A stretch of 17,383 bases of DNA from Escherichia coli (GTDB taxonomy: Bacteria; Pseudomonadota; Gammaproteobacteria; Enterobacterales; Enterobacteriaceae). This document shows, in pieces, positions 10,394-10,445 of this stretch (positions within the stretch are counted from its first letter, which is position 1; each line of letters begins with the position of its first letter). The stretch lies in NCBI RefSeq assembly GCF_003334255.1, contig NZ_QOWU01000075.1. One strand, written 5' to 3'. A program made the position numbers and the translations under genes. Below the pieces are notes generated by a model. The model was not told the DNA's origin, searched no databases, and was given only the letters and a program-made list of their open reading frames with translations.

Positions 10394-10445
10394 TAGCATG
10401 CTTCCAGTTTTCTCAGTCAGAGACTGAGCGTTAATCGAAATTCGG

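Follow-up and report, generated by a model that had tools for sequence, protein, structure and literature searches.

Intercistronic hairpins of long bacterial operons include REP elements and other stabilisers of the malE-malF type. Structured mRNA elements that lie beside the Shine-Dalgarno (SD) sequence, the rpsO and thrS operators among them, reportedly dock on the platform of the 30S subunit, and RNase E is said to prefer AU-rich single strands that conform to RAUUW or RN↓WUU. The gap between nuoF and nuoG has a catalogued element of its own, the nuoG motif, which was described by Weinberg et al. 2010 (Genome Biol 11:R31; PMC2864571) as present in most enterobacteria without Salmonella, and for which these authors reported “considerable covariation” while nonetheless calling the structure “ambiguous”. 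The motif is listed as “nuoG RNA”, family RF01748, in Rfam, where its model consists of a 7-bp hairpin flanked by GAAUUUUUGAUUAAC and CCAAcUGGAAG and its type is given as Cis-reg, a label that is a prediction. Among the papers covered by a literature search for the motif, the 2010 description is the only one that mentions it.

Here we analyse the nuoF-nuoG spacer in a stretch of 17,383 nt of Escherichia coli DNA (contig NZ_QOWU01000075.1), referred to as the window throughout, for which an earlier note made from the sequence alone had pointed to a short perfect hairpin without recognising a catalogued motif. We find that this hairpin is almost certainly the form that the nuoG RNA motif, RF01748, takes in E. 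coli. The element is already known and has been catalogued since 2010, and the present observation is a rediscovery; what we add is firmer covariation, the strand on which the structure is maintained, a compensatory polymorphism within E. coli, the spacing to the SD, variants with loop insertions and the lineages in which the hairpin has been lost. Two of these, the exact 5-nt spacing to the SD and the repeated clean loss, are additional constraints on function.

Results

The nuo operon occupies the minus strand of the window, in which adding 2389772 converts a position to its K-12 coordinate, and the nuoF-nuoG spacer is found in 5423 of 5426 complete E. coli genomes, the annotated features under the match being nuoF and nuoG (Table 1). 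Long untranslated gaps occur at only three junctions of the operon, B-C, F-G and L-M, with all remaining junctions overlapping or no more than 15 nt apart, and the long F-G gap therefore means that nuoG needs a de novo initiation event of its own. In transcript order the gap reads UAA-CCGAAUUUCGAUUAACG-CUCAGUC-UCU-GACUGAG-AAAACU-GGAAG-CAUGCUA-AUG. The earlier note had given the spacer as 46 bp, a figure that has to be revised to 52 nt when the count runs to the RefSeq K-12 nuoG start, the second ATG at 10393 and the sole ATG conserved across genera; ATGGCTAC at this start is conserved in 80 of 80 loci. The upstream in-frame ATG at 10397-10399, which would open a 910-aa reading frame two codons earlier, lies only 1 nt past the SD, many genera having ACG in its place, and for these reasons its use as the nuoG start is unlikely.

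Table 1. Positions of the nuoF-nuoG junction features in the window
Feature	Position	Strand	Basis or remark
nuoF	10446..11783	(-)	ORF list and K-12 annotation
nuoF stop codon UAA	10446..10448	(-)	ORF and K-12 annotation
Conserved AU-rich 5' flank GAAUUUCGAUUAAC plus G10429, predicted single-stranded	10429..10443	(-)	Alignment of 49 sequences
Hairpin CUCAGUC-UCU-GACUGAG	10412..10428	(-)	7 bp, 3-nt loop, predicted -9.2 kcal/mol
Linker AAAACU, hairpin to SD	10406..10411	(-)	6 nt here; 5 nt in the family register
nuoG Shine-Dalgarno GGAAG	10401..10405	(-)	Invariant in 49 aligned sequences; 7 nt upstream of the ATG at 10393
nuoG start codon, annotated and conserved	10391..10393	(-)	K-12 RefSeq CDS 2397439..2400165, 908 aa
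nuoG	7667..10393 (annotated) or 10399 (mechanical ORF)	(-)	ORF list, K-12 annotation

A repeat search recovers the inverted repeat CTCAGTC-aga-GACTGAG with 7-nt arms at 10412-10418 and 10422-10428, 100% complementarity and a 3-nt loop, exactly where the earlier note had placed it; the letters given there are correct for the repeat but are those of the plus strand, and the nuo mRNA carries the reverse complement, CUCAGUC-UCU-GACUGAG. The further claim that the hairpin sits just upstream of the nuoG ribosome-binding site on the operon transcript also stands, with the hairpin ending 6 nt before GGAAG, which corresponds to the 5-nt spacing of the family.

Taken singly, the hairpin is at chance level. 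The window contains one perfect 7-bp hairpin with a 3-nt loop against 0.96 expected from dinucleotide shuffles, and eight when loops of 3-8 nt are allowed, against 6.7 expected; the 81-nt fold around the hairpin has a z-score of -0.03 relative to shuffles, and about 1% of shuffled nuoF-nuoG spacers contain a hairpin of this kind. Single-sequence statistics neither support nor refute the element, and it is on account of the comparative evidence that we accept it as real. Scans predict no terminator or promoter at the hairpin site on either strand, and the sequence past the stem is AAAACUGG on the sense and CGUUAAUCG on the antisense strand, with no U-run; an intrinsic (Rho-independent) terminator was rejected on the grounds of the missing U-run and the empty terminator scan.

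A cmscan search against Rfam 15 places RF01748 at 10443..10401 on the minus strand with 50.3 bits (E = 4.7e-10, against a gathering score of 33 bits), spanning model positions 1-43 of 43, and this is the sole Rfam match in the whole window. The hairpin belongs to the family by its score, gene context and architecture, by its occurrence in the seed alignment and by the covariation of the stem: the motif lies between the nuoF stop and the nuoG start in the nuo operon of an enterobacterium, a 7-8-bp hairpin stands between the flanks GAAUUUUUGAUUAAC and CCAACUGGAAG, and the exact E. coli spacer sequence of the window is contained in the 2010 seed alignment (nuoG.sto) for several E. coli genomes. 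Read against the model, the window gives GAAUU-UCGAUUAAC g CUCAGUC UCU GACUGAG AAAACUGGAAG, with two changes in the 5' flank (a deletion and a substitution) and without the outer pair, and at several stem positions it departs from the consensus GCCcGuc/gaCgGGC, complementarily on both arms. The Escherichia version thus differs from the family form in having a 3-nt rather than a 4-nt loop, 7 bp rather than 8 bp following loss of the outer G-C pair, and AAAACU after the stem where the consensus has CCAACU.

The first 120 residues of NuoG were used as a query against one genome per species (GTDB r220), and the best 80 of more than 592 loci were fetched, 79 of them with usable upstream sequence; these span Enterobacteriaceae, Erwiniaceae, Yersiniaceae, Morganellaceae, Hafniaceae and other families. 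Within this set a hairpin is present at the homologous place in 59 of the 79 Enterobacterales spacers, as a plain hairpin in 54 loci and, in five others (L001, L013, L038, L046 and L071), as a basal stem that closes a long palindromic loop insertion (-22 to -68 kcal/mol). The remaining 20 loci are hairpin-less, mostly with a 27-33-nt AU-rich spacer directly before GGAAG. The RF01748 threshold is reached by 48 of the 79.

The 49 distinct plain-hairpin sequences of this independent sample, window included, were aligned with MAFFT without regard to structure; all indels fall inside the loop and none in columns 28-45. The 8-bp helix is paired in 95.3% of the cells of this alignment, and double-sided changes are seen at seven of the eight stem pairs (100 double-changed cells), such that the 49 sequences contain 42 distinct stems. 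The covariation score of 0.72, compared to 0.28 in shuffles, is reached by none of 500 shuffles and falls to 0.02-0.16 when the pairing partners are slid by 1-3 columns; RNAalifold returns the same helix as its consensus. On the nuo mRNA strand the stem cells contain 31 G·U against a single A·C, A·C being the reading of a G·U on the opposite strand, and this 31:1 ratio therefore points to selection on the sense RNA rather than on an antisense transcript or on the DNA, as a palindrome or an operator. Judged from the alignment, the stem is evidently selected as an RNA structure on the nuo mRNA.

Conservation is unevenly distributed over the motif. The flanks and the two basal pairs (G-C and C-G) are conserved as sequence, while the rest of the stem only covaries; within the 5' flank, alignment positions G10, A14 and A15 are invariant and T7, T12, T13, C16 and G17 reach at least 90% conservation. 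At the outer pair, 17-35, 42 of the 49 sequences have G-C and those of the Escherichia type have G/A, with G10429 as the 5' half of the lost pair and A10411 in the position of the lost C. The loop, of 2-6 nt, is variable in sequence and tolerates insertions of ~60-130 nt. A ligand-binding riboswitch or aptamer was considered and rejected, given the single helix, the variable 2-6-nt loop and the small size of the motif.

Compensation is also visible within E. coli. Among the 5423 complete genomes carrying the region, haplotype A, that of the window (CUCAGUC-UCU-GACUGAG), accounts for 4464 genomes and haplotype B (CUCGGUC-CCU-GACCGAG) for 937, with various other haplotypes in the remaining ~22 (at most 22). 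Haplotype B differs from A by replacement of an A-U pair (10425/10415) with G-C, plus one change in the loop, and one of the other genomes, L084, which we examined, carries the G·U intermediate CUCGGUC...GACUGAG; there are almost no stem-breaking alleles in the E. coli population. The representative of a second Escherichia species, L002, has CUCGGUU-UAU-AACCGAG, with two further compensated pairs. Covariation, strand asymmetry and this polymorphism settle the question of structure that was left open by the authors of the 2010 description. Conservation with compensatory changes, which the earlier note had named as the thing to look for, is borne out both across the 59 hairpin-bearing spacers and inside E. 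coli, while the option it had kept of a fortuitous palindrome is refuted by the conserved, covarying stem; the lack of conservation in close relatives that would have spoken against the hairpin is clearly not what the relatives show.

We find that the distance between the hairpin and the SD is essentially fixed. The linker is 5 nt long in the 53 plain-hairpin loci that were measured (all but L065) and in the window, although it takes 11 different sequences, and it appears as 6 nt in Escherichia owing to loss of the outer G-C pair. Meanwhile the hairpin varies in length from 15 to 19 nt, two SD-to-AUG distances occur (7 and 10 nt), and between 1 and 274 nt separate the motif from the nuoF stop. 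A fixed spacing to the SD when all other distances vary implies that what is constrained is the position relative to the SD, with neither the nuoF stop nor the start codon as its reference, although the fixed spacing could come in part from the scarcity of indels in a 5-nt stretch. The five loci with loop insertions keep the basal 5-6 bp, and their linker is 5 nt in four cases and 7 nt in L046.

The surroundings of the motif are rich in acquired repeats. The palindromic element in the loop, at ~440-595 in each of the five loci, is ERIC-like in L013 and L046, and the nuoG hairpin loop appears to be either a target for insertion or a place where insertion is tolerated. Upstream of the motif, the spacers of L007, L019, L021, L029, L033, L036, L043 and others attract further repeats, such as the REP-like units CCCUCACCC...GGGUGAGGG / AGGGAGAGGG and, in L022, L047, L039, L070 and L078, ERIC copies, and many genera have an unrelated stable hairpin directly after the nuoF stop. 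In the loci inspected, none of these acquired hairpins or ERIC-like and REP-like repeats falls between the hairpin and the SD, all of them being upstream of the motif. Extra upstream sequence is seen in 38 of 55 hairpin-bearing and in 5 of 20 hairpin-less spacers, counts that ignore phylogeny.

The hairpin-less lineages include the Klebsiella oxytoca group, Kluyvera, Phytobacter, Yokenella, Trabulsiella and Hafnia, and all keep the AU-rich tract and the SD, GGAAG being present in these spacers as well. That Salmonella belongs with them rests on Weinberg et al. (PMC2864571), as its spacer is not among the best 80 loci. Since 20 of 79 lineages do without the hairpin, its contribution must be modest or replaceable. 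The spacer of Hafnia paralvei (L069), UUUAAAGGUUUUUCUUAUUUUGGAAG, is nearly identical to those of the Klebsiella oxytoca group and Kluyvera (L020, L028, L031, L037, L042 and L052), which belong to a different family; this likeness between hairpin-less spacers suggests that this part of the operon was recombined or transferred, or that the hairpin was lost convergently.

Published maps of RNA ends were then compared with the locus. The Term-seq supplement of Adams et al. 2021 gives nuo 3' ends at K-12 positions 2394829, 2399938, 2403873 and 2405086 and lists none in the nuoF-nuoG spacer (K-12 24001xx-24002xx), the interval in which the earlier note had suggested that transcript ends be mapped. 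Entries for nuo were not found in the Salmonella TIER-seq supplements (Chao 2017), nor were entries for nuoF or nuoG in the Romero 2014 supplement, and a tiling-array paper on RNase E and RNase III makes no mention of nuo.

Partition-function calculations were used to estimate the accessibility of the region from the SD to 12 nt past the AUG in 54 native contexts, each as wild type, with the 5' arm or the 3' arm disrupted, with both arms compensated, and with the hairpin deleted. The predicted accessibility of the SD and start region is 0.486, compared to 0.466-0.482 upon disruption, compensation or deletion of the hairpin, differences of no more than 0.02. This flat modelled accessibility, together with an outer helix that shows no covariation, argues against a simple masking or unmasking mechanism. 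The roles that the earlier note had suggested, modulation of nuoG translation initiation or an RNase processing or stability site, are both plausible, with the qualification that the Term-seq supplement lists no 3' end in the spacer and that our models predict no effect on accessibility of the ribosome-binding site.

Discussion

We tentatively favour counting the hairpin among the structural parts of the nuoG ribosome-binding site. The data show that the hairpin exists, is conserved, forms on the nuo mRNA strand, keeps a fixed spacing to the SD and is dispensable in some lineages; any effect on initiation, and the sign of such an effect, is inferred. A fixed distance to the SD, with the other distances free, points to joint recognition of hairpin and SD by the initiating 30S subunit. 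The hairpin would set a compact, fixed 5' boundary beside the nuoG SD, and hairpin and AU-rich flank would presumably find room on the 30S platform; in this way the nuoG initiation region would retain a constant geometry and context whatever lies upstream, at a site that is a hot spot for palindromic insertions, and nuoG initiation would be tuned to match that of the other subunits. The rpsO and thrS operators resemble the element in being folded immediately 5' of the SD, in the region contacted by the 30S subunit, and in having a constrained distance to the SD, but they are larger structures to which a known repressor protein binds and which entrap the ribosome. By analogy, the nuoG hairpin may be a candidate for a minimal platform-docking element, one whose loop can vary freely and can also take up large insertions.

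Among the alternatives, processing by RNase E is somewhat unlikely. In this reading the flank GAUUAAC / GAAUUU would be an entry or cleavage site positioned by the stem-loop, and after cleavage the hairpin, now near the new 5' end, would shield the ~10-kb nuoG-N segment from attack or scanning that depends on the 5' end, and the stabilities of nuoA-F and nuoG-N would become independent. The conserved flank residues G10, U12, U13, A14 and A15 spell G-A/U-U-U-A, which fits the AU-rich preference of the enzyme, many lineages have a hairpin / AU-rich / hairpin layout created by the extra, non-homologous hairpin after the nuoF stop, and the stem-loop tolerates huge extensions; against this, so loose a consensus is satisfied by any AU-rich tract, the hairpin-less spacers are equally AU-rich, no spacer 3' end is found in the Term-seq of Adams 2021 and no nuo entry in the Salmonella TIER-seq supplements, and the exact 5-nt spacing to the SD is left unexplained. 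The element is comparable to the stem-loop-guided RNase E sites of papBA and MicL (bioRxiv 10.1101/341578) in that an AU-rich strand adjoins an intercistronic stem-loop, but its spacing is kept to the SD and not to a cleavage site. A more elaborate version, which we consider unlikely, is that the hairpin and the G(A/U)UUAAC flank form an RNase E entry-control module that splits the ~15-kb nuo mRNA at nuoF/nuoG, with the hairpin positioning the cut and capping the new 5' end by the nuoG ribosome-binding site, such that nuoA-F, which ends with the NADH-oxidising E and F genes, and nuoG-N acquire independent stability and translation; such a module would serve the stoichiometry of complex I subunits as a conserved post-transcriptional device, which Salmonella, Klebsiella and Kluyvera would have lost or replaced. 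It is highly improbable that the hairpin stabilises nuoA-F as a barrier to 3'-to-5' exonucleases in the manner of REP and other intercistronic stabilisers. It shares with the malE-malF type its location in the intercistronic gap of a long operon, and the nearby nuoL-nuoM spacer has a true REP-like palindrome, but the nuoG hairpin belongs to a single locus rather than to a genome-wide repeat and is much weaker (-9.2 kcal/mol, with no U-run after it); furthermore, Term-seq maps no 3' end at or near its base, and it is positioned beside the downstream ribosome-binding site, with a fixed distance to that SD, rather than beside the upstream stop, from which it lies 1-274 nt away.

Recognition by a trans-acting factor, a protein or an sRNA that would read the flanks, the base of the stem and the SD region and regulate nuoG-N apart from nuoA-F, is quite unlikely, even though it would explain why the flanks and the two basal pairs are conserved as sequence while the rest of the stem covaries, and a repressor in competition with the 30S subunit would be well served by a fixed distance to the SD. 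We know of no candidate factor for the nuoG hairpin. Variable loops that tolerate 60-130-nt insertions exclude recognition of the loop, and the control of nuo by RyhB acts at nuoA, not at nuoF-nuoG (PMC6497325). Recognition of the CsrA GGA type or the IRE type was rejected, the loops being variable in both sequence and length. An attenuator that masks the SD, in which the hairpin clamp would bring the UUUYG flank to YGGAA and a weak outer helix would lower nuoG translation, is very unlikely: the outer helix is part of the E. coli minimum-free-energy fold and is compatible with 87.8% of cells in the 49 sequences, but neither the centroid structure nor the RNAalifold consensus contains it, it consists mostly of U·G and U-A pairs without double-sided changes (GGAA being invariant), and in silico disruption of the hairpin does not raise the accessibility of the ribosome-binding site. 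Finally, a fortuitous palindrome, a DNA-level feature (an operator, a cruciform or the product of quasi-palindrome correction) or a neutral relic of a palindromic insertion would be in line with the chance-level occurrence of the hairpin in the window by itself, with the 20 of 79 lineages that manage without it and with the attraction of the spacer for palindromic mobile repeats. We regard this as extremely improbable in view of the 42 different stems in which pairing is retained across Enterobacterales families, the 31:1 ratio of G·U to A·C, which is not expected from upkeep of a DNA palindrome or of a protein operator, and the fact that no more than 22 of 5423 E. coli genomes have neither haplotype A nor B, the one examined being a G·U intermediate.

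If the hairpin does act as a structural part of the nuoG ribosome-binding site and tunes nuoG initiation, or if it instead affects the stability of nuoG-N, it would be a small, conserved contributor to the balanced synthesis of the subunits of respiratory complex I.

The same operon contains other sites of note. The 163-nt nuoL-nuoM spacer (3270-3432, minus strand) carries the REP-like palindrome taggtcggataagccgccttcgcggtgcatccgacac, a second intercistronic hairpin of the nuo operon that is different in kind from the one between nuoF and nuoG. A terminator-like site inside nuoG on the antisense strand (10214-10230, plus strand), ACGCGTGTCTTCCGCGT followed by TTTGGTATTG, is at chance level, with one such site found and 0.8 expected. 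The 93-nt nuoB-nuoC spacer (14086-14178, minus strand) contains the long-range inverted repeat GCGCCUGUCGGC ... GCGCCGACAG and, nested with it, the inverted repeat UCUUCGC...GCGAAG, and the Term-seq 3' end at K-12 2403873 (~14101) lies just downstream of the inverted repeat, giving this spacer a mapped RNA end where the nuoF-nuoG hairpin has none in Term-seq. A strong 3' end in the data of Adams et al. 2021, K-12 2399938, corresponds to ~10166 on the minus strand of the window, 227 nt inside nuoG, and ends in ...GGCACCUUUAUUUCCAUUG; it has no obvious terminator hairpin, is flagged “No” in the column that we take to report Rho dependence, and could mark a pause, a processing site or a site of attenuation.
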